Shown one piece after another: positions 873-41,774 of a stretch of 46,874 nt of DNA. The stretch is from an uncultured Methanosarcinales archaeon (GTDB lineage: Archaea > Nanobdellota > Nanobdellia > Woesearchaeales > CAYZNE01). Made by a program: the position numbers and the translations under genes. The stretch spans positions 1 to 46,874 of the forward strand of contig CAYWRI010000010.1 in the NCBI GenBank assembly GCA_964461035.1. The letters are read 5' to 3'. The notes beneath the pieces are model-generated. The model did not search any database. It saw only the letters and a list, made by a program, of their open reading frames with translations, and was not told where the DNA came from. Every line of letters begins with the position of its first letter. Within the stretch, counting starts at the first letter, position 1.

Positions 873-3512
873 ATGAGTAAAAGAATGATTGGTAAGCCTT
901 TTAAAAAGGTTAATTTTAGTAAAGTAAATAGTACGTTACCTTATGATATTAGAGATGCTAATATTGATTTAGGCGTAGGATTAAAACCCGATACATCTTT
1001 ACAAGCTTTTGCTAAAGGTGTTGGTGAAAGTGATATTAATGCGGGAGATGTTATTTTATATTCTTTAGGTGCTTCTGCTCTTGTTGGAACTGCAGCTATA
1101 GTTGCTGACAATATTTTAGGACATAATTCTCAACCAGGAGCGGGACATAATTCTATTGTTGCATCATATGTTAATGCAGATAGTGCTGTTAATAATGCTC
1201 AAGCTTTTTTTGTGAATAATGATATTAATTCTACTGTTGTTGGTACAACACCTATTGAGTCTTCTGATTTAGCAAAGGTTTGTAATAGTTATGATGTTGA
1301 TGTTAGTAGATTTAAGAATGATGTTAAGAAAGGTAGAAAGTTTGCTGTTGTTCATTCTAAAGATGGTGATGTCTTAGCTGTTTATAATAATAGAGGTACT
1401 AAGATTTTAAAAACTAAAGAATTATTAAAAAATGAATCTGGAACTATTGTTAAGAATATTGTTAATTATGCTGCAAATGTTTTTGAAAAAGGTTTAAATT
1501 TAATAACTCCATCTGCATGTGCAAAAGAAATTCCTTCAATTTCTTCAGGACAAAAAAAAGATGTAATGAATTTAATGCAATCTCCAAATAACGAAAAGAC
1601 TCAATTTATATTCAATGTTAAAACATTAGGTACTTTTCCAAATCAAAAATATGATTTTAGTAAGTTGGATGTTGAAGATTTTTATGCTGAAAATGGAATA
1701 AGTCTTTTATCTCTTTCTAAAACTGCACTTTCTTATGAAGAGGTTTGTGAAGAGAATAAAAATTTTTGGGTTCATACTAATCCTCTTGTAGGTGAAGCAA
1801 GTCCTGAAGATAAGAAATTTATTGATGGCTTAGTAAATATGGCTATGGATAATTATCAATTAAGTGAATTACCTAAAGTGGTTGATCAAGTAAAAAATGT
1901 TTTAAATTCCTCAAAATATTCTGATTTGGAGATTAAAGGAGTAGGATTTACGGATTTAGTTCATTCTGTTTATGTTGCCATCAATAAAGATGTTACTTTT
2001 GTAAATGCTGATAATGCTGAATCTGATGACACGCATAATATGTTCACAGAACCTGATCAAACAATTGTTGTGAATGATTCTGAGTTAAATAGGGTTTTAG
2101 CTTATAATTTAGATGATGCAACAAAATCATATTTGCATAATGACGCTGTTCAAAGTAAATTAAACCAAGCAGCTATAAAAAGTGTTGAGAAAGAAATTTT
2201 TAAACTTGAAGATTTGTTAGTTAATGATGTTGATAGTTTAGCTATAGTGCATGATAAAATTGGTGATATGAATGTTATAGTTGTAGAAAAAGATGATATT
2301 CAATATCAGGTTACTGCTGATAATGAAGGGAATACTTTGAGTTTTGTTGTCTTAAATGATACACTTTCAAAGTTTACTCATGTTATTAGTATAGGAACTC
2401 CAAATGAAGAAGATATGAAATCTTTTCAAGCATATAGTAATTTATTAAAGGATCTTTACAAACATGCCAGTCTTGCAGAAAAAAAGAATTCAGTAATTAA
2501 TTCTATGGGTTCAGAAAATGTTAATTCAAAATCAATAAAAGAAATAGTTGATTTAATTGATCCGTCTCATGGAGAAGTAACTGAAGTGGTTATGAATTTG
2601 AATTCGTCAGGAAATATTCCAAATCAAAAATTTGGGTTTGATAATTTATCTGTTCAAGATTACACTCCTGAACATGATGTGTGTAATTTATTGCTAGAAA
2701 AAGATTTCCTTTACTATGATCAATATTTTAATAAAGAAAATCAATCTTTATCTCTTTGTGCTGATTCCCTCTATATTGAGAATACTCAAGATATAATAAT
2801 AAACAAAAAAATTATTGATAATCTTGTGGATATTGCTATGGATGAATACCAATTGGAACAATTACCCTTCGTAGTTGAAAAAGTAAAAAATGTACTTTCT
2901 TCATTAGATTATTCAAATTTGATTGTTAATGATGTTACGTTTATTGGTAAATCTTTTCTTAATGTTAGTATTGATGATAATATTACTTTCGAAATTGGAT
3001 ATAATTCATCTACAGGTATTGGTAGAGGCTCTAATTCTGATGACAAATGGGGCGCTCAGAACATTACTATAACAGATCCTGAAAATAATAGAAAAATAAC
3101 TTATAATTTAGATGAAGCAACAAAAGCGTATATTCATAAAGATGGAATGAATGATGAGTTTGGTTCCAGAGCTGCTGATGCTTTTGGTAAAGAATATTCT
3201 AAACTAATGGATAAATTGAGTGATCCAAGTGATAGTTTATTTATCGTTCAGGATGAATCACCAAAGGGTATAAATTCTTTAATAATTGAAGATAGGAGTG
3301 CACAATATAGAATAGATGCTGATAGTGAAGGAAATGTATTTGCTTTTTATTTATTAGATAAATCTGTGTCCAAATATACTTTTGGAATTCATTTGAATTC
3401 TGAATGTAGAAAAAAAGCTGAAGGTCTCGATGAGTATTTCTTTGAAGTATATAAATTTGGAACACAAAGGCTTTATGATGATGCTGTAGAAGTAATGAAT
3501 AACAGAAATTAA
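873..3512 (+). CDS. Large (879 aa) soluble protein of unknown function with an internal ~325-aa tandem duplication
   Basis: A GGGAGG Shine-Dalgarno motif sits 8 nt upstream. Two divergent copies of the same module are visible in the translation: TFPNQKYDF...LVNMAMDNYQLSELPKVVDQVKNVL... against NIPNQKFGF...LVDIAMDEYQLEQLPFVVEKVKNVL.... No TM segment or signal peptide is obvious. Confidence 0.6.
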   Translation: MSKRMIGKPFKKVNFSKVNSTLPYDIRDANIDLGVGLKPDTSLQAFAKGVGESDINAGDVILYSLGASALVGTAAIVADNILGHNSQPGAGHNSIVASYVNADSAVNNAQAFFVNNDINSTVVGTTPIESSDLAKVCNSYDVDVSRFKNDVKKGRKFAVVHSKDGDVLAVYNNRGTKILKTKELLKNESGTIVKNIVNYAANVFEKGLNLITPSACAKEIPSISSGQKKDVMNLMQSPNNEKTQFIFNVKTLGTFPNQKYDFSKLDVEDFYAENGISLLSLSKTALSYEEVCEENKNFWVHTNPLVGEASPEDKKFIDGLVNMAMDNYQLSELPKVVDQVKNVLNSSKYSDLEIKGVGFTDLVHSVYVAINKDVTFVNADNAESDDTHNMFTEPDQTIVVNDSELNRVLAYNLDDATKSYLHNDAVQSKLNQAAIKSVEKEIFKLEDLLVNDVDSLAIVHDKIGDMNVIVVEKDDIQYQVTADNEGNTLSFVVLNDTLSKFTHVISIGTPNEEDMKSFQAYSNLLKDLYKHASLAEKKNSVINSMGSENVNSKSIKEIVDLIDPSHGEVTEVVMNLNSSGNIPNQKFGFDNLSVQDYTPEHDVCNLLLEKDFLYYDQYFNKENQSLSLCADSLYIENTQDIIINKKIIDNLVDIAMDEYQLEQLPFVVEKVKNVLSSLDYSNLIVNDVTFIGKSFLNVSIDDNITFEIGYNSSTGIGRGSNSDDKWGAQNITITDPENNRKITYNLDEATKAYIHKDGMNDEFGSRAADAFGKEYSKLMDKLSDPSDSLFIVQDESPKGINSLIIEDRSAQYRIDADSEGNVFAFYLLDKSVSKYTFGIHLNSECRKKAEGLDEYFFEVYKFGTQRLYDDAVEVMNNRN

Positions 3513-10850: not shown

Positions 10851-10967
10851 GGTGGACAGCTTCAAAGGTCTCCCACACATAAATGCAGTACCACCAAAGA
10901 CGTAAATGCGCTTTACTTCTGAGTTCGAAATGTGATCAGGTAGTTCCACACCACTATGGCCGTCCAA
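10851..10967 (-). rRNA. rrf: 5S ribosomal RNA (stand-alone)
   Basis: A G+C-rich island sits in AT-rich DNA. The reverse complement reads GGACGGCCAUAGUGGUGUGGAACUACCUGAUCACAUUUCGAACUCAGAAGUAAAGCGC...GAAGCUGUCCACC. It includes the conserved loop-C region CCUGAUC-CAUUUCGAACUCAGAAGUNAAGC. The 5' end GGACGG and the 3' end CUGUCC pair to form helix I. Confidence 0.85.
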
Positions 10968-12189: not shown

Positions 12190-12621
12190 TCAAGCTTTTA
12201 AATGTGCACGCTTTCTTTTTTTACTTGTTTGAGAATTAGGTTTATGTGCACCAAATAAAAATATTATTGCAATTACAAGAACAACTGTAAAACTAGCATA
12301 TATTGCTTGCATTGCTAAACTTTCTTTTTGTTGTTTTTCTGTTTTAAGAAGTGTTGAAAAAGAAGAACTTTCTTTTTCTTGCTTTGTTAATTCTAAAATA
12401 CTTAAACACATTTCTGGTTTGTGACACACGCCTTGATTTTCTTCATAAAATTGACAACAAACTTGAGGCGCTTCACAATCTTGCTTTCCAATAGAACATA
12501 ATGGTCGATTTGTAAGTTCAGAATAATCACTTGAAACCATCCCTGTTATACTATTTCTTACTATTCCCAAACCAAGCATTACTACAAAAAGCATTAATAT
12601 GATGATTACTTTTTTTCTCAT
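12190..12621 (-). CDS. Small Cys-rich membrane protein (TM at both ends, Cys-rich middle)
   Basis: N-terminal IIILMLFVVMLGLGIV and C-terminal VVLVIAIIFLFGA look like TM segments. The middle region contains 8 Cys. Confidence 0.4.
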   Translation of the reverse strand: MRKKVIIILMLFVVMLGLGIVRNSITGMVSSDYSELTNRPLCSIGKQDCEAPQVCCQFYEENQGVCHKPEMCLSILELTKQEKESSSFSTLLKTEKQQKESLAMQAIYASFTVVLVIAIIFLFGAHKPNSQTSKKRKRAHLKA

Positions 12622-12918
12622 AATAATAGTTTCATACTAGCTACTATAAAAAGTTTTCTATTGTCTTGGCTATTGTCGTGAGTGTTCTAAATATATCTGC
12701 GCACATATTAGTTATGAATATGAGTTCTTAATAAAATTATGCGCTCTTGCGAACAATTTTTTTTCTTAGAAGGTGCTGTTTTCCCAAAGGAGTCAACTTC
12801 TGACAATGCATTTGATGGATTATTTTAATTAGCTTGCTCTAGGTGCATAATATATATTATTTACGTCAGTAACTATATACTCGATAATTTTTTAAAGAAT
12901 GATAATATCTTATTTACT

Positions 12919-14349
12919 ATGACAGAAGAATATAAAGAAATAGGTGAATTTAGATATGAACTCTTAAAAACAGGAAATATGAAAGTTCCTGGAATAATTT
13001 ATGCTTCAAGTAAATTATTCAAGAAAATGAAGGAAGATAAAACTCTTGAACAAGTAAAAAATGTTGCTTGTCTTCCAGGAATAATAAAATCTAGTATTGC
13101 AATGAGTGATGCACATCAAGGATATGGTTTTAGTATTGGTGGAGTTGCAGCATTTGATGCTGAAACAGGAATAATAACTCCTGGAGGAATAGGATTTGAT
13201 ATAAATTGCGGAGTCCGTCTTCTTACAACCAATTTAACAAGAGAAATTGTTGAACCAAAAATATTAGAATTATTAGATGTAATATACAGAAAAGTTCCTG
13301 TTGGTGTTGGAAAAGATTCTTCTATAAGATTAAATCATGAAGAATTAGATAAAGTCCTAACTGATGGTGTTAAATGGGCTATTTCTCAAGGATTTGGAAC
13401 AGAAGATGATCTTAAAAATTGTGAATCTGAAGGTCAATTAATAGATGCTGATTCTTCTAAAGTTAGTCCTAAGGCCAAAAAAAGAGGTAAAGCTCAACTA
13501 GGAACTCTTGGAGCAGGAAATCATTTTATAGAAATACAAGTTGTTGATAAAATATATGATAAAGAAATTGCTAAAGTTTTTGGTTTTGAAAAAGAAGGAC
13601 AAATTGCGGTAATGATTCATACAGGTTCAAGAGGACTTGGACATCAAGTATGTTCAGATTACTTAAGAAAAATGGAAGATTCATTTCCTGAAATAGTTAA
13701 TAGTTTACCTGAAAAAGATTTAATTTATGCTCCAATAAATTCAGAAATGGGTAAAAATTATTATTCTGCAATGTGTGCCGCAGCTAATTTTGCTTGGTGT
13801 AATAGACATATTATTGGACATGCAGTAAAAGCATCATTCAAAAGAGTATTTGAAAATGTAGAACTGAAAACAGTTTATGATGTAGCACATAATATTGCTA
13901 AAAAAGAAGAACACATTATTGATGGTAAAAAAAGAAAAGTTTGTGTTCATAGAAAAGGTGCTACAAGAGCGTTTCCTGCACAACATCCTGAAGTTCCTGA
14001 ACATTACAAAACTACAGGTCATCCGGTCTTAATTCCTGGAAGTATGGGAACTGCATCCTATGTTCTTGTAGGAACTCAAAAAAGCTTACTTGAAACATTT
14101 GGAAGTTCAGCACATGGTGCTGGAAGACTAATGTCACGACATGCTGCAAGAAAGAGTATTGATGGTGTTGAAGTAAAAAAAGAACTTGAATTAAGAAAAA
14201 TATATGTAAAATCTCCTAGTGCCAAAGGAATAGCTGATGAGGCACCTCAAGTATACAAAGATATTGATGAAGTAATTCGAGTTACTGAAGGTTCAGGTAT
14301 TTGCAGAAAAATTGTAAGATTAATTCCATTAGGTGTTATAAAAGGATAG
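12919..14349 (+). CDS. rtcB: RNA-splicing ligase RtcB (3'-phosphate/5'-OH RNA ligase)
   Basis: Hallmarks GGIGFDINCGVRLL, LGAGNHFIEIQVVD, HTGSRGLGHQV and AHNIA...HRKGATRAF...GSMGTASYVLVG. The size is 476 aa. Confidence 0.9.
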   Translation: MTEEYKEIGEFRYELLKTGNMKVPGIIYASSKLFKKMKEDKTLEQVKNVACLPGIIKSSIAMSDAHQGYGFSIGGVAAFDAETGIITPGGIGFDINCGVRLLTTNLTREIVEPKILELLDVIYRKVPVGVGKDSSIRLNHEELDKVLTDGVKWAISQGFGTEDDLKNCESEGQLIDADSSKVSPKAKKRGKAQLGTLGAGNHFIEIQVVDKIYDKEIAKVFGFEKEGQIAVMIHTGSRGLGHQVCSDYLRKMEDSFPEIVNSLPEKDLIYAPINSEMGKNYYSAMCAAANFAWCNRHIIGHAVKASFKRVFENVELKTVYDVAHNIAKKEEHIIDGKKRKVCVHRKGATRAFPAQHPEVPEHYKTTGHPVLIPGSMGTASYVLVGTQKSLLETFGSSAHGAGRLMSRHAARKSIDGVEVKKELELRKIYVKSPSAKGIADEAPQVYKDIDEVIRVTEGSGICRKIVRLIPLGVIKG

Positions 14350-14402: not shown

Positions 14403-15587
14403 ATGAAAGAAGCAATTCATCCTGGTAAAAGAAAAATCGAAATCAGGTCAAGAATTTCTAATGATTTGAAAACTAGATTGTTAAACACAAAATTCAAAAA
14501 AGAATATCAAGGTAAAGAACTTAATATTTTTGTGGGAAGATTTGGTTATCCTCAAGTAAATGTAGGATTCTTAGGTAATGAACAAGTTGATGAAATATTT
14601 GATTCTCCAAAGCAATGGGTGAAACAAAAATTTGGAATATCAACAATAAGTGCTCTTCGTTCATCATTAATTAATTCAAGATTCAAAACAAACATAAAAG
14701 ATTTTAAAAATAAATTACTTGAACAAGCACAAGAAGTTGCATTAAGTTCAAATGCGGTAGATATGGAAATAAACTTAGAAAAACAACCCAAAAGAATTCT
14801 TTCTTTGCATAAACACAGCATACCCACAGGTCCTGCATCAACAATAAAAAATGTTAAAATAAGCTCTAATCCGAGCATTGATGAAAAAGTTGATTATATA
14901 ACATCTGATACAGATTTAAAAGCAGGAGAAGGAATATTAACACTTTATAAAAAAGGGTTTGATGAATTATTTCTCACAAAAATTTTATCAACAGGAAATC
15001 TTGGTCTTAAATATAATCGAAAAATTGTTCCAACAAGATGGAGTATAACTGCAACAGATGATACCATAGGTAAACAATTAATAACTGAAATAAGTAAGTA
15101 TCCTGCATGTGATATATTTTCAACTTTTGGAGGGCATCTTGGAAATTTTTATATTACCCTTTTTTTTCCTGGTGAATTTTCTTATGAATTATTCGAAATT
15201 GAACCTGATTCGGGAGGTGTGTGGACTGATCACGAAACCAGTTTTGGAAGAAAAACATATGCTTCCAATTGTGTTGGAGGATATTATGCAAATAGGCTAG
15301 CAATACTTGAAAAACTAAAAAAATTAAAAAGAAGTGCTTCAGTTTTAAGTATACGATTCATAACAGATCAATATTATCAACCATTAGGAGTTTGGGTTGT
15401 TAGAGAAGCATCAAGAAAAGCTTTAACGGAAAGAGAAATAAATTTTTATGATAAAAAACTAATGATAAAATATGCTATTGGACTTGCAAAAAAATACTTT
15501 AATTATGATTTAACAGAAATACTTTCTCAAAGTAAACTATTAAAAAGCATAACCTATCAAAAAAGACTTAATGAGTTTTTTAATTGA
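14403..15587 (+). CDS. nreA: NreA-like archaeal DNA-repair protein (Nre_N/Nre_C) with a C-terminal PCNA-interacting (PIP) box
   Basis: ~395 aa. The TRWSITA motif is seen in Nre proteins. The extreme C-terminus QKRLNEFFN fits QxxLxxFF. The ORF track starts at 14301, overlapping rtcB; the ATG at 14403 is preferred. Confidence 0.5.
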   Translation: MKEAIHPGKRKIEIRSRISNDLKTRLLNTKFKKEYQGKELNIFVGRFGYPQVNVGFLGNEQVDEIFDSPKQWVKQKFGISTISALRSSLINSRFKTNIKDFKNKLLEQAQEVALSSNAVDMEINLEKQPKRILSLHKHSIPTGPASTIKNVKISSNPSIDEKVDYITSDTDLKAGEGILTLYKKGFDELFLTKILSTGNLGLKYNRKIVPTRWSITATDDTIGKQLITEISKYPACDIFSTFGGHLGNFYITLFFPGEFSYELFEIEPDSGGVWTDHETSFGRKTYASNCVGGYYANRLAILEKLKKLKRSASVLSIRFITDQYYQPLGVWVVREASRKALTEREINFYDKKLMIKYAIGLAKKYFNYDLTEILSQSKLLKSITYQKRLNEFFN

Positions 15588-17222: not shown

Positions 17223-17561
17223 TTAATAAGTTTTCATCCTCATATCTTGTTTTTTAGAAGGCCCATTTTCTCGATCTTTTTCTGATTCATTGTAATCATT
17301 GTCAAAAGTTTTAGGTTTAAGGTTAGGATCATTGAACATATTAAAAATGTCCTGATTTTCTTCAACTTGATTATTATTTTGAATTGATGAAGAATTTTGA
17401 GAAGAATCATTGTCAAACATTCCAAAGAGTCCTTTACCTGAATCAGTAATTGGAGAAACATTTAAAGAAGAATTATTATCTCCTAAATGGTTTTGTAAAA
17501 AGTTTATTATTTGTTTTATACTTTCCTTTGAATCCTTATTTGTATCAATACTTATTATCAT
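17223..17561 (-). CDS. Small acidic S/N/D-rich protein between the radical SAM and archease genes
   Basis: The ORF is closely spaced with its neighbours (1-nt gap to archease, 5-nt to the radical SAM gene). The tail is low-complexity. Confidence 0.35.
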   Translation of the reverse strand: MIISIDTNKDSKESIKQIINFLQNHLGDNNSSLNVSPITDSGKGLFGMFDNDSSQNSSSIQNNNQVEENQDIFNMFNDPNLKPKTFDNDYNESEKDRENGPSKKQDMRMKTY

Positions 17562-27679: not shown

Positions 27680-27751
27680 TGGGTATTGAACTAAATAATT
27701 TATATTGAGCGTTCAAGATAAGTTAATTAAAATAAAAACTTAAAATGTACT

Positions 27752-27829
27752 GTAATTAAAACAGAAAACCTGTACATCTTCGAACAAAGAATAAATTTAG
27801 TGATAGTGCATTTTTTACTTAAAACTTAG
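27752..27829. repeat. Intergenic repeat element, copy C (partial, more diverged), upstream of the FlaJ-like gene
   Basis: gtaattaaaacagaaaacc...aataaatttagtgatagtgcattttttacttaaaacttag compares with copy A gtagctaaaacaaagg...ataaatttagtgaaagcagataatacttattacaaacttaac. Confidence 0.45.
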
Positions 27830-27864
27830 ATTTTCCAGCATTACTAATTTAATTACTGATTCAA

Positions 27865-30195
27865 ATGAAAGAACCAAAGACAGATAAAGAATTGATTGAT
27901 ATGTATAAATCTAAAGTAGATTCAGAAATACATAAAGATTTGAATATTCCTAAAGATATTGGTTCTGAAATGTATTCAAAATTTAGAGTTAAAGTAGAAA
28001 ATAAATTAAAAAAAGATTTTAATAGTGATCAAAAGCCTTTAAAACAAATAACCTCTCGACAATATGATGAATTCAGAAATTCTTTTCTTCCAAAAAATCT
28101 TTCATGGTATGAAAAAGCTTGCAATGTTTCTGAGTCATTACTTCATATGCAAGCAAATCCTTCGAAAGTAGAGCAAACAAAAGAAGATTTAGCTACTTGT
28201 CATTTAAATTGTACTCCTGCAGGCATTACAAGTTTCGCAATTCTCGGACCATTAATATTCATGGTAGTATCTTCAATATTTGGATTCATATTTCCAATTC
28301 TTGCAGGCGACAATGATCCTCAAGCAGGATTGTTTTTTGTTATGTTTTCAATAGTTATTGGATTTATTTTAATGCTTCCATTAAACAAATTTCCAAGTTT
28401 TTTAGCAACATCTTGGAGAATGAAAGCAAGTAATCAAATGGTTCTTTCTATTTTCTATGTTGCAACATATATGAGACATACTTCTAATCTTGAATTAGCA
28501 ATTGATTTTGCAGCAGAACATCTTAGTCCACCATTATCATTAGACCTAAAGAAAGTTATCTGGGATGTTGAAACTCAAGAGCATTCATCTGTAAAAGAAT
28601 CTTTAGAAGCATATCTTGAAAAATGGAAAAAATATAATATGGAATATATTGAATCAATGCACCTCATAATATCAAGTTTATATGAAACATCTGAAACAAG
28701 AAGATTAAATGCACTTGACAAATCATTAGAAGTCATACTTGAAGAAACAAAAGATAGAATGATGCATTATGCTCAAAACCTTAAAACGCCTCTTGATACT
28801 TTGAATATGTTAGGTATTGTTCTTCCAGTTCTAGGTTTAGTAATTCTTCCTTTGATGGTAAGTTTTATGCCTCAAGTAAAATGGTATCATCTTGCAAGTG
28901 TATATAATATTGCATTACCAATTATTGTTTATTACTTAGGAAAAAACATATTGGCTACAAGACCTTCAGGATATGGTCATGTTGATTTATCCCATGTTTC
29001 AGAATACAAAAAATATTCTAATATAATTATAAAAACATCTAAAAAGGAAATTATTATAAGTCCTATTTATTTGGCAGCATTAGTTTTTATACTTTTTTTT
29101 CTTATTGGAACATTTCCTTTATTTTTACATGCAGTGGCTCCCGATTTTGATTTAGTTGTTGTTAGTGATTCTAATGGGGGCGTTGCTTTAAGAAACATAC
29201 TTCTTGTTTCTGATAAAACTACAATACAACATTCATTATTAGGTTATAGATTTGATTCTGAATCTTTAAGAAACATTGGTCCTTTTGGACTTGGGGCTAC
29301 GTTGTTATCGTTAATGATTCCTATTGCTTTTGGAATTTCTTTAGGATTATATTACAAATTGAAATCAAAAAATGTTATGGGTGTAAGAGAGAAAACAAGA
29401 AAACTTGAAGAAGAATTTGCTTCATCTCTTTTTCAATTAGGTAATAGATTAGGAGATGGAATTCCTCCTGAACTCGCTTTTAGTAAAGTATCGCAAGTAA
29501 TGACTGGAACAATATCAGGTAAATTTTTTGACTTAGTATCTTTGAATATAAGTAAAAAAGGAATGTCTGTTGAAAAAGCAATTTTTGACAAAAAAGAAGG
29601 TGCAATAAATTTTTTCCCTTCTAATTTAATAGATACTTCAATGAAAATTTTAATTGAGTCTTCAAAAAAAGGTTCGCTTATTGCAAGTAATGCACTCATT
29701 AATGTATCAAACTATATTAAACAAATGCACAGAGTTGATACAAGATTAACAGATCTTATGACTGATGTTGTATCAAGTATGAAAGCACAAATAAGTTTTT
29801 TAACACCTATAATTGCGGGAATAGTTATAGGAATCACAAGCATGATAACAACAATTCTGGGTTCTTTAACAACTCAAATGAACTCACTTTCTGAAATGGG
29901 AACAAGTTCTGGTGCAGGAGGTCTTTCAACTGTAAGTCTTTTATCCATGTTTAATGCGGGTGTTCCCACATACTATTTTCAGGTAATAGTTGGTTTATAT
30001 GTTGTTCAAATTGTTTTTATATTAACCATAATTAGCAATGGAATAGTAAACGGTTCTGATAAACTAAATGAAAAGTATCTTCTTGGTAAAAACATGATTT
30101 CAAGTACACTACTATATGTTTTTATTGGAGGTGTAGTTATACTTATATTTAACCTAATTGCAGGTTCAATACTTTCAGGTTTAAGTGCGGGATAA
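27865..30195 (+). CDS. FlaJ/TadC-like polytopic membrane platform protein (776 aa)
   Basis: Many TM segments alternate with cytoplasmic helical domains. The gene lies immediately downstream of the secretion ATPase, which is the canonical FlaI-FlaJ arrangement. Confidence 0.5.
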   Translation: MKEPKTDKELIDMYKSKVDSEIHKDLNIPKDIGSEMYSKFRVKVENKLKKDFNSDQKPLKQITSRQYDEFRNSFLPKNLSWYEKACNVSESLLHMQANPSKVEQTKEDLATCHLNCTPAGITSFAILGPLIFMVVSSIFGFIFPILAGDNDPQAGLFFVMFSIVIGFILMLPLNKFPSFLATSWRMKASNQMVLSIFYVATYMRHTSNLELAIDFAAEHLSPPLSLDLKKVIWDVETQEHSSVKESLEAYLEKWKKYNMEYIESMHLIISSLYETSETRRLNALDKSLEVILEETKDRMMHYAQNLKTPLDTLNMLGIVLPVLGLVILPLMVSFMPQVKWYHLASVYNIALPIIVYYLGKNILATRPSGYGHVDLSHVSEYKKYSNIIIKTSKKEIIISPIYLAALVFILFFLIGTFPLFLHAVAPDFDLVVVSDSNGGVALRNILLVSDKTTIQHSLLGYRFDSESLRNIGPFGLGATLLSLMIPIAFGISLGLYYKLKSKNVMGVREKTRKLEEEFASSLFQLGNRLGDGIPPELAFSKVSQVMTGTISGKFFDLVSLNISKKGMSVEKAIFDKKEGAINFFPSNLIDTSMKILIESSKKGSLIASNALINVSNYIKQMHRVDTRLTDLMTDVVSSMKAQISFLTPIIAGIVIGITSMITTILGSLTTQMNSLSEMGTSSGAGGLSTVSLLSMFNAGVPTYYFQVIVGLYVVQIVFILTIISNGIVNGSDKLNEKYLLGKNMISSTLLYVFIGGVVILIFNLIAGSILSGLSAG

Positions 30196-30725: not shown

Positions 30726-30800
30726 TAAATTTAATTATTAACTTTTTTACTCAATGTTAACTAAGGTTTATTCTTGAAAGGAAAAATATTTTACTATTTG

Positions 30801-30956
30801 TTAACGAGATTTTACAATTATTATACTAATTACTGAATTGATTCAACATTATAATAAAAGTGTGTTGTAGCTAAAACAAAGGTAAGATAGCACTTGGAAT
30901 ACTTCATAAATTTAGTGAAAGCAGATAATACTTATTACAAACTTAACTTGCTAACT
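30801..30956. repeat. Intergenic repeat element, copy A (homologous to 32461..32612 and partly to 27752..27829)
   Basis: The shared blocks are ttaNcgag..., ...agcacNtNgaataNt..taaatttagtNaNagca...ttattaNaaacttaactYgctaact. Confidence 0.6.
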
Positions 30957-31064
30957 AAAAATGTATTTATCTTAGTTTAATCCACGGCAATATTTTTTAT
31001 TATTTTGAACAGACTCTGAAAATAGAAAGCTTTTAAAAGAGAGTTAAATTCTTTGATATATTAC

Positions 31065-31139
31065 GGGGCTGTAGGGTAGCCTGGTCCATCCTCTCTGGTT
31101 TGGGACCAGAAGACCCCAGTTCGAATCTGGGCAGCCCCA
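31065..31139 (+). tRNA. tRNA-Pro (anticodon UGG)
   Basis: Acceptor GGGGCUG pairs with CAGCCCC, then discriminator A. T-arm CCCAG-UUCGAAU-CUGGG. Anticodon arm UCUGG-UUUGGGA-CCAGA with U33 and UGG at positions 34-36. The D region is slightly irregular (2 nt between the D and anticodon stems). Confidence 0.75.
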
Positions 31140-31222
31140 TTTAATTGTGAATAACAAAGAAAGTTTATTATAATCAATAGCATTAAAATAACATAAGTAT
31201 ATAAGGAGAATAAAAAGTTAAA

Positions 31223-31468
31223 ATGGTAACAAAACAATCTGGAACAACGAGAAGATTAGGTTCAAGGTATGGAAGAACCATACGTGCAAAATTAGGAAAA
31301 ATAGAGGCAACACAAAAAAAAACATATAAGTGTCCTGAATGTAAATACAAGAAAGTAAAACGAAAATCTGTGGGGATTTGGCAATGTTCTAATTGTGGAT
31401 TAAAATTTACAAGTAAAGCATATTTTGTTGATAAAAAACCTAAAGTAAAACAAAAATTAGAAGAATAA
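31223..31468 (+). CDS. rpl37ae: Ribosomal protein L37Ae (eL43)
   Basis: AAGGAG Shine-Dalgarno motif. C4 ribbon CPECKYKK...WQCSNCG. N-terminus GTTRRLGSRYGRTIR. Confidence 0.9.
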   Translation: MVTKQSGTTRRLGSRYGRTIRAKLGKIEATQKKTYKCPECKYKKVKRKSVGIWQCSNCGLKFTSKAYFVDKKPKVKQKLEE

Positions 31469-31481
31469 TTAAGGGGTGAAA

Positions 31482-31619
31482 ATGGCTAGTTATAAATGTT
31501 TTAATTGTAATAAAGAAATATCTGATAGATATATTCAAAAAAGAATAAGATGTCCTTATTGTGGAAGTAAAATAATATTTAAACCAAGACAAACAATAAC
31601 TACTGTTAAGGCTCGATAG
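31482..31619 (+). CDS. rpoP: DNA-directed RNA polymerase subunit P (Rpo12/RPABC4), 45 aa; absent from the ORF track
   Basis: MASYKCFNCNKEISDRYIQKRIRCPYCGSKIIFKPRQ has CxxC-x13-CxxC. AAGGGGTG Shine-Dalgarno motif. The position between L37Ae and Pcc1 matches the conserved archaeal arrangement. Confidence 0.75.
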   Translation: MASYKCFNCNKEISDRYIQKRIRCPYCGSKIIFKPRQTITTVKAR

Positions 31620-31620
31620 A

Positions 31621-31878
31621 ATGTTTAAAGCTTCAATTGATATTACTGAATGCGAATTAAATAAAACTGCATTAGATTTAGAAAAACTTTTTAATGCAGA
31701 TAATTTTGAAGCTAAAACAAGCAAAGTTTATTTTCAACGACAAAATAATGGTAATATTAAAATAACTATTGAAAGTGGAGATGTTGTTTCTTTTAGAGCA
31801 AGTTTAAATGGAATAACAACTATGTTAAGTATATATTATCAAAGTAAAAAAACAATAATAGAGGAACAAAATGAATGA
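31621..31878 (+). CDS. pcc1: Pcc1-like KEOPS subunit
   Basis: Size ~85 aa. The pattern ...KITIESGDVVSFRASLNGITTMLSI resembles Pcc1 (...RGTVNSYLRWI...). It lies in the conserved L37Ae-RpoP-Pcc1-PfdB context. Confidence 0.55.
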   Translation: MFKASIDITECELNKTALDLEKLFNADNFEAKTSKVYFQRQNNGNIKITIESGDVVSFRASLNGITTMLSIYYQSKKTIIEEQNE

Positions 31879-32203
31879 ACAAAAAATAGAAGAACTTTCA
31901 ATACTTCAAAAGAATGTTGCAAATCTTTCTGCTCAAAAACAACAATTTGTAACACAGTTAGCAGAGTTTGATTCTGCATTAAAATCATTAGACGATACAG
32001 AATCTGCATATAAAATAATTGGAAATATCATGATAAAATCTTCTAAAGAAGAACTAAAAAAAGATATTACAAAAAAAATAGAAATTCTTGAAGTGCGAAT
32101 TAGATCATTTGAAAAACAAGAATCAAAACTTAAAGAAAAATCAGAATCTTTGCAAAAAGAAATTATGTCTGAAATGAATGAAAAAAATAGTAATGAGAAG
32201 TGA
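31871..32203 (+). CDS. pfdB: Prefoldin beta subunit
   Basis: ~110-aa coiled-coil protein. LQKNVANLSAQKQQFVTQLAEFDSALKSLDD...IGNIMIK is typical of PfdB. Confidence 0.7.
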   Translation: MNEQKIEELSILQKNVANLSAQKQQFVTQLAEFDSALKSLDDTESAYKIIGNIMIKSSKEELKKDITKKIEILEVRIRSFEKQESKLKEKSESLQKEIMSEMNEKNSNEK

Positions 32204-32208
32204 TTAAA

Positions 32209-32439
32209 ATGTCTTTTAATGAAATTATAGAATCTTTAGAAATACTTAAAGAAGAAGTTGGCCTTCCTAAAAATCTTAAGATTAAAATTAATCAAATTAT
32301 GAAAATTCTTCTTAATGATGAAGAAAGTGAAGAAATTAGATCTCACAAAGCTGAAACAATTCTTGAAGAAATGTCTTCAGATACATCTTTACAATCATTT
32401 GTAAGAACTCAAATATATCAAATTACGAGTTTGATGTAA
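32209..32439 (+). CDS. Small helical protein, UPF0147-like
   Basis: LPKNLKIKINQIMKILLNDEESEEIRSHKAETILEEMSSDTSLQSFVRTQIYQITSLM shows two-fold pseudo-repeat helices as in the UPF0147 family. It is located after pfdB. Confidence 0.4.
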   Translation: MSFNEIIESLEILKEEVGLPKNLKIKINQIMKILLNDEESEEIRSHKAETILEEMSSDTSLQSFVRTQIYQITSLM

Positions 32440-32460
32440 TAACTTATTTCTTTAAATTAA

Positions 32461-32612
32461 TTAGCGAGTCAAATAATTGGTATTATGTGCTTAATTATTA
32501 TAATGAAATTGTCTCGTCAGAAGTGGGCATCTTTGGGGGAGAGAGCACCTTTGAATAGTGTGTAAATTTAGTAAGAGCACAAAATAGTTATTAAAAACTT
32601 AACTCGCTAACT
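32461..32612. repeat. Intergenic repeat element, copy B, bounded by a 15-16-nt imperfect inverted repeat (32453-32468 / 32602-32625)
   Basis: aaattaattagcgagt ... actcgctaacttaattaa. The internal G+C-rich core is gggcatctttgggggagagagcacc. The element is homologous to copy A at 30801..30956. Confidence 0.6.
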
Positions 32613-32862
32613 TAATTAATAATTTATTTTCAACTAGTAATTAAATAATTCTGAAATACGATAGTTATATTTATAATAACCATAATAATTTTGGGTTTAT
32701 ATTTAAATAAAATAAGCTTACTTTATTCTAATTCAGTACTTTTGTTGTTCTGAATATACTTTATAACCAATACATTTATAATTGATAATATTGATTTAAT
32801 ATAATATCTATAAAGCTTTTAATTTGTTTAATTATTTAATTAATGTGTAGAAACTGAAGAAA

Positions 32863-37582: not shown

Positions 37583-39454
37583 ATGACATTAAAAGATTTT
37601 AAACAATTAACTAGTATTAATGAAAATATTGATTATTTTGATAAAGGCCTTAAATGTGGTCTAGAAATTCATCAGCAATTGAATACAAATAAATTATTTT
37701 GTAATTGCTCAACTAATTCTAATACGAATGTTAAAAATATAACTTTTGATTATATTGTTAAGAGAAACTTACGAAGTTCTAAAAGCGAACTGGGTCATAT
37801 TGATGCTGCTGCAAAATTTGAAATGAAAAAATCTAAAACTAATTTGTATTATGGTTCACATAAATCAAGTTGTTTAGTTGAACTTGATGAAGAACCACCA
37901 CATTCTCCAAATAAAGATGCATTATTAATTTGTCTTGAAGTAGCAAAATTCTTTGAAATGAATTCTGTTGACAAATTAAGTTTTATGAGAAAAATTGTTG
38001 TTGATGGATCTAACACTACAGGATTTCAAAGAACCGCACTTGTTGCTAAAGCTGGAATTATAGAAGAAAAAAATGTTCGTATTGAATCGCTATGTCTTGA
38101 AGAAGATGCTTGTAAAAAAATTAAAGATTATGTTAAAAAGAATGAATATTATTCAGAATATGATCTTTCTAGATTAGGAATTCCATTGATTGAAATTGCT
38201 ACTGCTCCAGACATAAAAAGTCCCATACAAGCTAAAGAAGTAGCAGAATATATTGGAATGGTTCTTAGAAGTACAGGAAAAGTAAAAAGAGGTATTGGAA
38301 CAATAAGACAGGATGTTAATGTTTCAATAAATGGTGGAGTTAGAGTAGAAATAAAAGGTGCTCAAGAACTCAATATGATTCCAAAGTTAATAATATATGA
38401 AATAATGCGACAACAAAATTTATTGAATATTTATTCAGAATTAAAAAAAATGACAATAATTATTTCTGAACCAGAACAAGTAACAGATATTTTTCTTCAA
38501 ACAAATTCAAAAATACTATCCGCTGCATTATCTGAAAAAAAATCTATTTTTGCAATAAAAATAAGTAATTGTGCTGGATGTTTTGGATTAGAAATACAGC
38601 CAAATAGAAGATTTGGTTCAGAAATTGCAGATCATGTAAAACCCTTTGGAATTAGAGGACTTTTCCATTCTGACGAAAAACTAGCTAAATATGGTTTAAC
38701 TACACAAGAAGTTGATAAATTAAAAACAAGATTACATTGTAATAAAGAAGATGCTTTTATAATTCTTGCAGAAGAAGAAACAAAAGCAAAACTTGCACTT
38801 GAAGAAGTAAAAGAATTTTTATCAAAATTAAAACTTGAAAAAGAAGTTAGACAGGCAAAACCTGATGCAACAAGCACTTTTTTACGACCAATGCCAGGTA
38901 GCGCAAGAATGTATCCTGAAACAGATATTCCAGGAATCGTAATTAACAAAAATTTATTGAAAGCACTACAACCAATAACTTTACTTTCAGAACAATATAA
39001 AGAACTTGAAACTATTGGAATTGAAAAAACATATGCTAAAGAACTTTTAAAACAAGGATTTAATATTAATTTTCTTGTAAAAAAGTATTCTAATTTGAAA
39101 CCCGAATTTATTGCAGAGTTTTTACTAGATTATCCTAAAGAAATAAAAAAAAGAAATAATCTTAATGTTGATATAACTAAATACGTTGATGAAATATTAA
39201 CAAAACTTAATAATAATAGTATAACAAAAGAAGCAGCATTTGGTGTTTTAATATTAAAGGCCCAAGGCAAATCTATTGATTATGCTCAATTTAAAGCTCT
39301 TGATGATGAGTTTGTTAAAAATAGAATAAAAGATATCATTAACAACAATAAAACTGCCCCTGCCAATGCAATAATGGGATTGTGTATGAAAGAATTCAGA
39401 GGCAAAATTGAAGGCAAAAAAGTCAAACAATTTATTGATGCGTTGTTCAATTAG
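37583..39454 (+). CDS. gatE: Glu-tRNA(Gln) amidotransferase subunit E (GatE)
   Basis: GLKCGLEIHQQLNT...LFCNC is the GatB/E-type N-terminus. The size is 623 aa with a C-terminal GatB/YqeY-like tail. It is paired with gatD. Confidence 0.8.
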   Translation: MTLKDFKQLTSINENIDYFDKGLKCGLEIHQQLNTNKLFCNCSTNSNTNVKNITFDYIVKRNLRSSKSELGHIDAAAKFEMKKSKTNLYYGSHKSSCLVELDEEPPHSPNKDALLICLEVAKFFEMNSVDKLSFMRKIVVDGSNTTGFQRTALVAKAGIIEEKNVRIESLCLEEDACKKIKDYVKKNEYYSEYDLSRLGIPLIEIATAPDIKSPIQAKEVAEYIGMVLRSTGKVKRGIGTIRQDVNVSINGGVRVEIKGAQELNMIPKLIIYEIMRQQNLLNIYSELKKMTIIISEPEQVTDIFLQTNSKILSAALSEKKSIFAIKISNCAGCFGLEIQPNRRFGSEIADHVKPFGIRGLFHSDEKLAKYGLTTQEVDKLKTRLHCNKEDAFIILAEEETKAKLALEEVKEFLSKLKLEKEVRQAKPDATSTFLRPMPGSARMYPETDIPGIVINKNLLKALQPITLLSEQYKELETIGIEKTYAKELLKQGFNINFLVKKYSNLKPEFIAEFLLDYPKEIKKRNNLNVDITKYVDEILTKLNNNSITKEAAFGVLILKAQGKSIDYAQFKALDDEFVKNRIKDIINNNKTAPANAIMGLCMKEFRGKIEGKKVKQFIDALFN

Positions 39455-41310: not shown

Positions 41311-41394
41311 TTTAACTGAAAAGTCTCATTTATTTATAAAAGTTTCATTTAGAATTACTTAAAAGTGATTACAAAATGCATTATTATTTATTTA

Positions 41395-41556
41395 ATCATT
41401 GCTTAAAAGTTTTAGTTCAATATTTTTGATAACATTTTTTATTGATTACTCAACATATTGCTTAGTCAATACATTTATTATACAATAGATTGGTTAATCA
41501 ATAAATAAAATATTTTTTGATAGAATTTTATTGCTAAAAGTTTTAAGCAAAAATCA
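41395..41556. repeat. Palindromic repeat element R1 (terminal inverted repeat tgcttaaaagtttta / aaaagttttaagca). It contains two TTGATTAANCAA-like palindromes. It is homologous to R2 at 46405..46562
   Basis: tgcttaaaagttttagttcaa...ttgattactcaa...ttggttaatcaa...ttgctaaaagttttaagcaaaaa. Confidence 0.6.
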
Positions 41557-41774
41557 TAAGTTTTAATTCTAAATTTTTACTTAAAAAAATGATATTACTA
41601 AAATAATTTAAAATAATTTAAATTTCTTAAGATATGGTTTTAGATTTTTCTCTCGACGAAAAAAATATTATTAAATAATTAAGATCATCCAATAAACCAA
41701 TTTTAGTATTGATTAATCGATAGATTTAAATATGAGTTTATCTCAATCACATTGAGTGAGTTATCAAATGAAAA

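Follow-up and report, generated by a model that had tools for sequence, protein, structure and literature searches.

The window, by which we mean the whole stretch of DNA analyzed here, is a complete NCBI contig of 46,874 bp with 26.8% G+C (CAYWRI010000010.1), and its proteins are nearest to those of metagenome-assembled genomes (MAGs) labelled Woesearchaeota or Nanoarchaeota. It carries four copies, A to D, of an intergenic repeated element that is the subject of this report. The genes around A, B, and C are ordinary for an archaeon and specify a T2SSE-type ATPase, a FlaJ-like membrane protein, a DUF1003 protein, tRNA-Pro, L37Ae, RpoP, Pcc1, prefoldin beta, and UPF0147; a 488-amino-acid (aa) protein with a RecX-type helix-turn-helix (HTH) is also encoded near A and B. 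RtcB, Nre, 5S rRNA, EF-1alpha, and GatD/E are specified elsewhere in the window, and Pfam reveals no encoded transposase. The four copies are best explained as paralogous members of a multicopy structured RNA element that is specific to one Woesearchaeota-type DPANN clade.

Copies of the element in the window

Copies A (30797-30958, plus strand, located by nhmmer and BLASTN) and B (32457-32616, plus strand) belong to the same subfamily, which is specific to the window's genome. A preliminary description made from the sequence had regarded the two as homologous over about 150 nt, and BLASTN within the window indeed aligns them at 78% identity over 92 nt (E = 2e-14); without gaps, 67 nt align at 81%. 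The identity of 75 to 85% that it ascribed to blocks is borne out in the 3' half (79.5%) but not in the 5' half (55%), and amounts to 65.5% over the full length. The shared blocks that it quoted are present in the copies, and a degenerate pattern composed from them matches exactly four sites in the window, namely, A to D, with no match in 100 dinucleotide-preserving shuffles.

Copy C, also noticed at that stage, is real (A versus C, BLASTN E = 6e-5), but the extent then given, 27752-27829, is too short: nhmmer places this degenerate member at 27680-27859 on the plus strand. It fills the entire spacer between the stop of the T2SSE-type ATPase gene (27679) and the start of the FlaJ-like gene (27865). 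Copy D (12696-12876, minus strand, nhmmer) had been overlooked and is the only canonical member in the window (B versus D, BLASTN E = 1.6e-7; nhmmer E = 6e-44 with D included in the model). It sits in the divergent spacer between RtcB (12919-14349, plus strand) and a 143-aa membrane protein (12190-12621, minus strand). Searches of the window with a hidden Markov model (HMM) and a covariance model yielded no copy beyond A to D. The distances from element to downstream gene were measured at 109, 251, and 36 nt, in agreement with the approximate values of 110, 250, and 35 nt noted before. A and B do flank the block that runs from tRNA-Pro to UPF0147, as described; because this block is kept in all relatives without such flanking copies, the arrangement is taken to have no special meaning.

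Members in related genomes

The further copies that the preliminary description had suggested looking for were sought in the window and in relatives, and they comprise D, a fifth copy (E) from the window's organism, and a set of diverged members. Copy E emerged from a pattern scan of JGI metagenomes, in which the window's organism alone was hit: one contig, L061, duplicates part of the window at 100% identity, and another, L057, carries E. This copy keeps the 3' half (AGCACCTTTGAATA...TAAATTCAGTGAGAGCACATAATACTTATTTAAAACTTAAATCGCTAAC) and has a much shorter 5' half. The other 12 metagenome pattern matches were dismissed as chance. The same applies to 44 single matches of the A/B/D-type pattern in unrelated bacteria among 185,579 species genomes, a set to which the source genome does not belong, since none of the 44 matched the family HMM. 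IMG/VR scans with the window pattern and with a canonical-core pattern returned chance matches only, and the covariance model finds nothing in them.

Loci of relatives were fetched through two anchors, the FlaJ-like protein (65 to 73% identity) and prefoldin beta (61 to 71%), so that the family is sampled near anchor genes and not at random. The diverged members in these loci were found first by nhmmer and later by a covariance model, R1, at which stage 12 members, D included, reached E <= 0.001 in 244 kb of clade DNA. Members lie between an ATP_bind_3 gene and ThiF (L073:14107-14226, L077:14985-15106, and L085:13035-13155), upstream of RLI/ABCE1 (L075:17313-17434 and L073:17220-17382), next to tRNA-Pro (L081:9012-9132 and L071:119-239), 3' of a radical-SAM gene (L055:3811-3929 and L091:4872-4994), 3' of a FlaJ-like gene (L089:12240-12360), upstream of an ATPase gene (L089:7424-7589), and antisense to both neighbors (L051:18565-18686). 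Four members occur within 37 kb of a single assembly (GCA_053986505.1). This density, extrapolated from nonrandom loci, suggests tens of copies per genome, or approximately one per 10 to 30 kb. An rve-type (IS481/IS3-like) gene at L081:8015-8914, the sole transposase gene in about 290 kb of clade DNA, is located between an AAA ATPase gene and tRNA-Pro, some 100 nt downstream of, and co-oriented with, the copy at L081:9012-9132.

Fold and covariation

The structure was derived from an alignment of five canonical relatives, and R1 was built from those five sequences together with that structure. RNAalifold had shown almost no structure when applied to three window copies or to a naive eight-sequence alignment; the fold appeared only once the canonical copies of the relatives were aligned. 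The canonical element is a single rod of about 120 nt. Outermost is the terminal helix H2 (7 to 10 bp), followed inward by an asymmetric internal loop, 5'-(Y)UAAGGYGA-3' opposite 5'-GARA-3', in which, to judge from the sequence, tandem G.A pairs could surround a Watson-Crick Y-R pair. Inside this G.A-rich loop lies H3 (5 to 7 bp; GCUCA/UGAGC and variants), and inside H3 a large A/U-rich internal loop with about 17 nt on its 5' side and 19 nt on its 3' side. Two inner helices, Pc1 (4 bp, GUUC/GAAC) and Pc2 (5 bp, UGCAG/CUGCA), are split by an invariant GU bulge. A purine-rich 5' bulge and an apical helix of 3 to 5 bp with a UACG-type or CACG loop complete the rod.

The alignment for compensatory changes envisaged in the preliminary description was made with 12 members, and covariation was found. 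In these members, standard pairs make up 92.0% of pair cells. Shuffling the 3' partners lowers the figure to 71.1 +/- 1.7%, and sliding them by 1 to 3 columns lowers it to 31 to 43%; none of 500 shuffles reaches 92.0%. Double-sided changes affect 17 of the 25 pairs and amount to 65 cells versus 22.7 expected, and the covariation score is 0.631 versus 0.232. Across five such measures, the observed value was reached by 0 of 500 shuffles on four and by 2 of 500 on the fifth. Compensatory pairing thus exceeds both the shuffled and the slid controls, which is how a conserved structured RNA was operationally recognized here. Individual helices illustrate the point. H2 pairs show up to five pair types, the helix being GUUAUGCAC/GUGCAUAAC in the ThiF copies, GUAUACUAUC/GAUAGUAUAC in L081, and CAUACUGUC/GACAGUAUG in L089; H3 changes from GCUCA/UGAGC to ACUGA/UCAGU; and the Y-R pair in the conserved loop is C-G in 6 of the 12 members and U-A in the other 6, without exception. 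A competing local hairpin, GAGCUCA/UGAGUUC, taken from a spurious Rfam match, was rejected: it is broken and uncompensated in L081, where H3 and Pc1 are compensated.

Against the model trained on relatives alone, with no sequence from the window's genome, D scores 57.6 bits (E of about 3e-10) and aligns end to end with model positions 1 to 120. The core rod of D, delimited by cmsearch alignment to R1, spans 12733-12853 on the minus strand. On that strand, H2 is formed by ATTATGCAC (12843-12851) with GCGCATAAT (12736-12744) and H3 by GAGCAA (12834-12839) with TTGTTC (12751-12756); inner helices pair TGC..TGT with ACA.GCA, and the apical hairpin reads TCC-TTTG-GGA (12782-12791). When the window is searched with R1 with filters off, the ranking is D, A, B, a probable false match inside a gene (38545-38636), and C, with 20.9 bits for A (30823-30932, E = 0.024), 14.9 bits for B (32480-32588), and 14.0 bits for C.

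A, B, E, and partly D represent a derived subfamily in the window's genome, in which the 3' half is kept at about 80% identity and the 5' half is decaying. Its members, together with C, have extra flanks that are absent from the relatives; the 5' flank adds about 20 nt and the 3' flank (TTATTAAAAACTTAAC.CGCTAAC) about 35 nt. These flanks close an outer helix, H1, which contains G.U pairs and mismatches: as RNA, GUUAACGAG/CUUGCUAAC in A, UUAGCGAGU/ACUCGCUAA in B, and AGUUA/UAACU in D. Copies A, B, and C, judged by eye, retain nested helices and have lost the UAAGGYGA side of the loop. On the plus strand of A these are H1, GTTAACGAG (30800-30808) with CTTGCTAAC (30947-30955); H3, ACTGAATT (30832-30839) with AATTTAGT (30909-30916), or ACUGAAUU/AAUUUAGU as RNA; and the inner helix Pc1, AAGTGT (30858-30863) with GCACTT (30890-30895). 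The corresponding plus-strand helices of B are H1, TTAGCGAGT (32461-32469) with ACTCGCTAA (32602-32610); H2, TATTATGTGCTT (32481-32492) with GAGCACAAAATA (32575-32586), or UAUUAUGUGCUU/GAGCACAAAAUA as RNA; H3, TTATTA (32495-32500) with TAGTAA (32569-32574); and an inner helix, TGTCTC with GAGAGCA (UGU.CUC/GAG.A.GCA). C, likewise on the plus strand, keeps AGTTAATT/AATTTAGT (27721-27728 with 27794-27801), ATGTAC/GTACAT (27745-27750 with 27772-27777), and CTGT/ACAG. Among single-sequence folds, B alone is significantly better than its shuffles (-39.1 kcal/mol, z = -3.1).

Gain, loss, and conservation at orthologous sites

Copies have been gained and lost at sites that can be compared between species. 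From the ATPase stop to the FlaJ start there are 185 nt in the window, taken up by C, and only 8 to 20 nt in L051, L054, and L056, with a GAGGTG ribosome-binding site; C is therefore an insertion. The FlaJ-like open reading frame (ORF) of the window (27865-27950 region) begins with about 28 N-terminal residues that are lacking in all relatives, and the start codon of the latter is a TTG at a position matching a window TTG near 27937. Either this N terminus was created by the insertion of C, or the true start lies downstream and the spacer measures about 260 nt. Loss is documented in L081, where the spacer upstream of ThiF (14407-14459) holds only about the first 18 nt of the element (TTATGCACTTAAGACGAG); this stub is a deletion remnant and shows that copies are lost by internal deletion.

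A and B coincide with changes in gene order. The block from tRNA-Pro to UPF0147 is directly followed by a convergent gene in every relative, and the counterpart of the window's 488-aa gene is found beside RLI, some 7 kb beyond, which places B at a rearrangement junction. A sits at another synteny junction, between DUF1003 and tRNA-Pro. Spread within a genome is suggested by L073:17220-17382 and L089:7424-7589, which are nonallelic, come from the same assembly (GCA_053986505.1), and share a 45-nt apical insertion that forms two additional hairpins, UUCUUG...CAAGAA and GGAAAU...AUUUCC. This insertion is missing from L075:17313-17434, the positional orthologue in another species, and its presence in two paralogues suggests gene conversion or recent copying.

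Other copies persist in place across species, upstream of ThiF (L073, L077, and L085) and upstream of RLI (L073 and L075). Such positional orthologues are 72 to 86% identical, and the flanking genes are 67 to 75% identical at third codon positions and 81 to 86% identical over all coding positions, as could be expected if the element is under moderate purifying selection.

Orientation and promoters

Four independent copies are wedged tightly into operons, reaching from a stop codon to 8 to 35 nt before the next start, and all are co-oriented with the genes: C, the copy upstream of ThiF, the copy 3' of the radical-SAM gene, and L089:12240. Over all independent sites, approximately eight point in the direction of the downstream gene, and three (E on L057, L071:119-239, and L051:18565-18686) are antisense to both neighbors. 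The downstream genes are diverse, as they specify the FlaJ-like protein, tRNA-Pro/L37Ae, the 488-aa RecX_HTH protein, a membrane protein, ThiF, RLI/ABCE1, a radical-SAM protein, a T2SSE ATPase, and an rve transposase.

Promoter boxes of the window's genome read (A)AACTTTATAAA or CTTTAAAA and precede leaderless starts by 25 to 35 nt. Most free-standing copies have a TATA-like box 20 to 50 nt upstream of the core; about half of these boxes match the form CTTTAWAW and the others are weaker, and in DNA of 73% A+T, where such boxes are easy to find, they are only suggestive. A TATA-like box just upstream of B (32450-32457, plus strand, CTTTAAAT) matches the CTTTAWAW type and is a putative promoter element. 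At D, at L075 and L073, and at L071, a near-palindromic box of the divergent neighbor (RtcB, a 450-aa gene, and tRNA-Pro, respectively) occupies this position. In the window the box spans 12888-12897 (TTTTTTAAAG on one strand, CTTTAAAAAA on the other, as read from the sequence and compared with the window's promoter consensus). This box is the promoter element of RtcB; on the minus strand it is also at promoter distance from D, about 15 to 35 nt upstream, and might serve in both directions. With the equivalent boxes at L075 (about 17475-17490) and L071 (about 270-290), it suggests bidirectional use of a single box at all three sites.

The tRNA-Pro, 488-aa, and 143-aa genes each have their own TATA box between element and gene, which speaks against A, B, and D as leaders of these genes. 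The copies are not consistently placed, in sense orientation, in the 5' untranslated regions of functionally related genes, as a cis-regulatory leader or riboswitch would be. A regulatory leader, one of the readings offered in the preliminary description, finds no support: the genes downstream are unrelated, three copies are antisense to both neighbors, and several genes have an intervening TATA box.

Other repeats in the window

Two further repeats were recorded. Inverted repeats of about 220 nt (41361-41578 and 46378-46600; 83% identity over 143 nt and 77% over a further 79 nt), unrelated to the A to D family, enclose a 4.8-kb module with a PadR regulator, an RNA ligase, a tyrosine recombinase (45549-46385), and several unknown proteins. 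This module, at the contig end, may be an integrated or invertible element. An 879-aa ORF (873-3512) without a Pfam match contains an internal repeat of 87 nt (2057-2143 and 3056-3142), the two units of which are 70% identical and spaced by exactly 999 nt, which indicates a duplicated domain of about 333 aa.

Discussion

Covariation makes it very probable that the element is conserved as a base-paired, single-stranded molecule. That it acts as RNA on the assigned strand is likely though less firm, in view of how the operonic copies are oriented and of two motifs, the UACG-type and the G.A-rich loops; these loop motifs, along with an excess of G.U over A.C pairs (18 versus 12), are features of the assigned strand only. 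The preliminary description had considered a small structured noncoding RNA family. This idea is supported, chiefly by the homologues in relatives and by D, where covariation is strong; A, B, and C are degenerate or derived and reach only 14 to 21 bits against the clade model. The best reading is that the element works at the level of RNA, whether as a stable small RNA or as a module within the transcripts of operons, and has undergone lineage-specific expansion and decay.

More specifically, we favor, with a probability of roughly 0.5, a family of small RNAs that would form ribonucleoproteins (RNPs) and would either be transcribed from TATA boxes that are neighboring or shared or be cut out of operon transcripts. 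Copies packed between codirectional genes would be transcribed within the operon transcript. Free-standing copies would depend on a TATA box 25 to 45 nt upstream, in several cases the near-palindromic box of a divergent neighbor. The terminal helix and the conserved G.A-rich loop may serve as a protein-binding, end-protecting platform that defines a discrete small RNP, presumably acting in trans, with maturation analogous to that of the archaeal C/D-box small RNA (sRNA) genes scattered in spacers. New copies would arise by duplication or gene conversion within the genome and later be lost by deletion.

Several observations weigh against this reading. The genome-wide copy number rests on extrapolation from anchor-gene loci, and the covariation alignment was fitted to the model, which favors structure, although the gap to the slid controls is still very large. 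Because the G.U excess is small and the antisense strands of D and A fold at least as well, the strand assignment derives mostly from loop motifs and orientation. The single-sequence folds of A and D are no better than those of shuffles (z = +1.07 and +0.16, respectively). Together with the poor scores of A, B, and C against the clade model, this makes it possible that these three least canonical members are decaying relics rather than functional RNAs. The G.A-rich loop also departs from the layout of a canonical kink-turn (K-turn), in which a C-stem and a 3-nt bulge are followed immediately by tandem sheared G.A/A.G pairs opening the NC-stem. Nine of the 12 members (all but D, L055, and L091) have tandem GA/GA next to H3, but a covarying Watson-Crick Y-R pair and a further G/A intervene between it and the 5-nt UAAGG bulge, and at the level of sequence the likeness to a K-turn is only loose. 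Finally, the large internal loops show no clear gain in conservation when positional orthologues rather than paralogues are compared, which argues against guide function.

A variant of the RNA-level reading that we consider unlikely, though the least so of the alternatives, holds that the element is a cis-acting module of polycistronic mRNAs that is never released and that affects processing, stability, or translation coupling, as ERIC, REP, and Correia hairpins do. The conserved pairing would suit such a module, as would the at least four independent copies that fill the whole spacer between codirectional genes in the orientation of those genes and the general preference for the downstream-gene direction (about eight independent sites versus three). 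However, E, L071:119-239, and L051:18565-18686 are antisense to both neighbors; D, the copies upstream of RLI, and B lie upstream of the next gene's own TATA box and so would be outside its mRNA; and the flanking genes have no common function. Far less probable than any other proposal is a DNA-level regulatory module in which the conserved 3' half is a promoter or transcription factor site common to several genes. In its favor, A, B, and E have a 3' half that is kept by sequence and not by covariation; two A/T-rich TATA-like boxes, TAAATTTA and TTATTAAAAA, lie in that half at a distance of about 26 nt; and 4 of the 5 copies from the window's genome point towards the downstream gene. These internal boxes nevertheless deviate from the CTTTAWAW-type consensus, to which the boxes between the element and the tRNA-Pro, 488-aa, and 143-aa genes conform better; E faces away from both neighbors; and the base-pair covariation seen in relatives is not expected of a DNA binding site.

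The dynamics of the family recall a selfish mobile repeat without a function for the host, i.e., a miniature inverted-repeat transposable element (MITE), a REPIN-like single-stranded DNA hairpin, or a small retroelement, the pairing of which would be kept for a mobilizing enzyme. C is inserted relative to three relatives, presence or absence varies at several orthologous sites, A and B lie at synteny breakpoints, subfamilies with shared derived features (the 45-nt insertion) occupy nonallelic sites, density is high at about one copy per 10 to 30 kb, and the weak G.U bias leaves pairing at the DNA level possible. Against mobility of this kind, the terminal helix pairs in nearly all copies and yet falls into at least four unrelated sequence types (UUAUGCA, UACUAUC, AACAUCC, and UGCUAUA), so that a transposase would have no conserved terminal inverted repeat. 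No consistent target-site duplication was seen by eye at A, B, D, E, and the operonic copies, where short ones could have decayed, the copies being old, or be hard to recognize in DNA of 73% A+T. With its differing helices and the want of evident duplications, the element looks unlike a classical MITE, and the miniature repeat of the preliminary description is not upheld in that sense. The element is moreover not a palindrome, its loops being asymmetric, conserved in sequence, and strand specific. The Pfam tables for the loci covered, about 290 kb of clade DNA, contain no IS200/IS605, RAYT, TnpB, or reverse transcriptase gene and one rve gene, that of L081. The 18-nt stub shows that at least one absence is due to deletion, and positional orthologues persist across species under apparent constraint. 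A selfish repeat is thus improbable, and clearly more so than the cis-acting module. A bolder extension of the small RNP reading remains doubtful, slightly more so than the selfish repeat: a new class of abundant RNP small RNAs, with tens per DPANN genome of about 1 Mb, L7Ae or a clade-specific partner as the common protein that the terminal helix and G.A loop would recruit, and large, paralogue-variable A/U-rich loops as guides that would confer target specificity, unrelated to C/D and H/ACA RNAs, or else a self-processing RNA that spreads through an RNA intermediate.

Identities outside these alternatives were also considered. As stated in the preliminary description, no known RNA family is matched. 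An Rfam 15 scan of the whole window at gathering thresholds reports only 5S rRNA and tRNA-Pro; covariance model scans at E <= 10 of A plus B, D, C, and a canonical relative (L077:14940-15140) gave noise from unrelated families at 12 to 21 bits; and Rfam 15 and the searchable literature on structured RNAs or MITEs of Woesearchaeota/DPANN yielded no description of such an element. A part of C (27745-27815) aligns with helix III/loop C of the window's 5S rRNA (10851-10967; ACCTG..ACAT.TTCGAAC..AGAA.TAA, z = 6.1 versus shuffles), and B and D share the octamer TCAGAAGT with that rRNA, where canonical relatives read GCAGAGAGU. A repeat derived from 5S rRNA was rejected nonetheless: the other copies have z values of -1.4 to 2.1, the family block aligns, depending on the copy, to two different parts of 5S rRNA, and the Rfam 5S model is silent at E <= 10. 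The resemblance of C is treated as coincidence. Integron attC sites are imperfect palindromes that end in 5'-RYYYAAC ... GTTRRRY-3' core sites and stand beside cassettes and an IntI integrase. The element is no such site: the polarity of the ends is the opposite in A and D (5'-GTTA...TAAC-3'), the flanked genes are core housekeeping genes, and the sole tyrosine recombinase of the window (45549-46385) is Xer-like by Pfam and 13 kb away from the element. Template and variable repeats of a diversity-generating retroelement do not fit either, as all copies are intergenic and their differences are not adenine specific.

DPANN genomes are the smallest and most gene-dense of archaeal genomes, and to our knowledge hardly any DPANN noncoding RNA has been described beyond rRNA, tRNA, RNase P, and signal recognition particle RNAs. 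The element takes up a measurable share of their scarce intergenic DNA and accounts for several puzzling long spacers and synteny breakpoints. Its well-supported fold, cross-species subfamilies, and positional conservation imply either function or a very successful parasite missed by present annotation. The covariance model built here could annotate it in Woesearchaeales MAGs and singles out candidates for RNA sequencing and protein-binding work.

Among known systems, archaeal box C/D sRNA genes resemble the family in having many paralogues per genome scattered in short spacers; some have their own promoter, and many abut or overlap ORF ends and rely on read-through, a situation similar to that of the element. 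In both, a terminal stem adjoins an internal loop that contains G.A; in C/D RNAs this loop is the K-turn to which L7Ae binds. Box C/D sRNAs are, however, about 50 to 70 nt long, with a C box (RUGAUGA) near the 5' end, a D box (CUGA) near the 3' end, and a K-turn. The element is twice as long (about 120 nt) and reads AAGGYGA and GARA at the box positions, has no C or D box, forms a single rod with three further helices, places a Watson-Crick pair between bulge and tandem G.A, and shows no guide-like conservation. No Rfam C/D model matches it, and these models give only subthreshold noise elsewhere in the region; identity with C/D sRNAs was therefore rejected. Archaeal H/ACA sRNAs, which also form RNPs, share the succession of lower stem, large internal loop, and upper stem and a G.A-type motif. 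In the element, no ACA/ANA box follows the lower stem, the G.A loop lies below and not above the large internal loop, the loop strands of 17 to 20 nt are about twice those of an H/ACA pseudouridylation pocket, and Rfam gives no match. The bacterial ERIC/IRU, Correia/NEMIS, BOX, and REP/REPIN repeats come close in size (100 to 160 nt), in their tens of copies in mostly transcribed spacers, often within operons, in their long imperfect hairpin, and in their presence/absence polymorphism and association with rearrangement points. They differ in being near-palindromes whose terminal inverted repeats are conserved and which often come with target duplications or a transposase of their own (RAYT), whereas the element has covarying termini, asymmetric strand-specific loops, no mobilizing gene in view, and an archaeal host. 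The element is thus a new family, the genomic behavior of which resembles that of known dispersed structured repeats and sRNA gene families.

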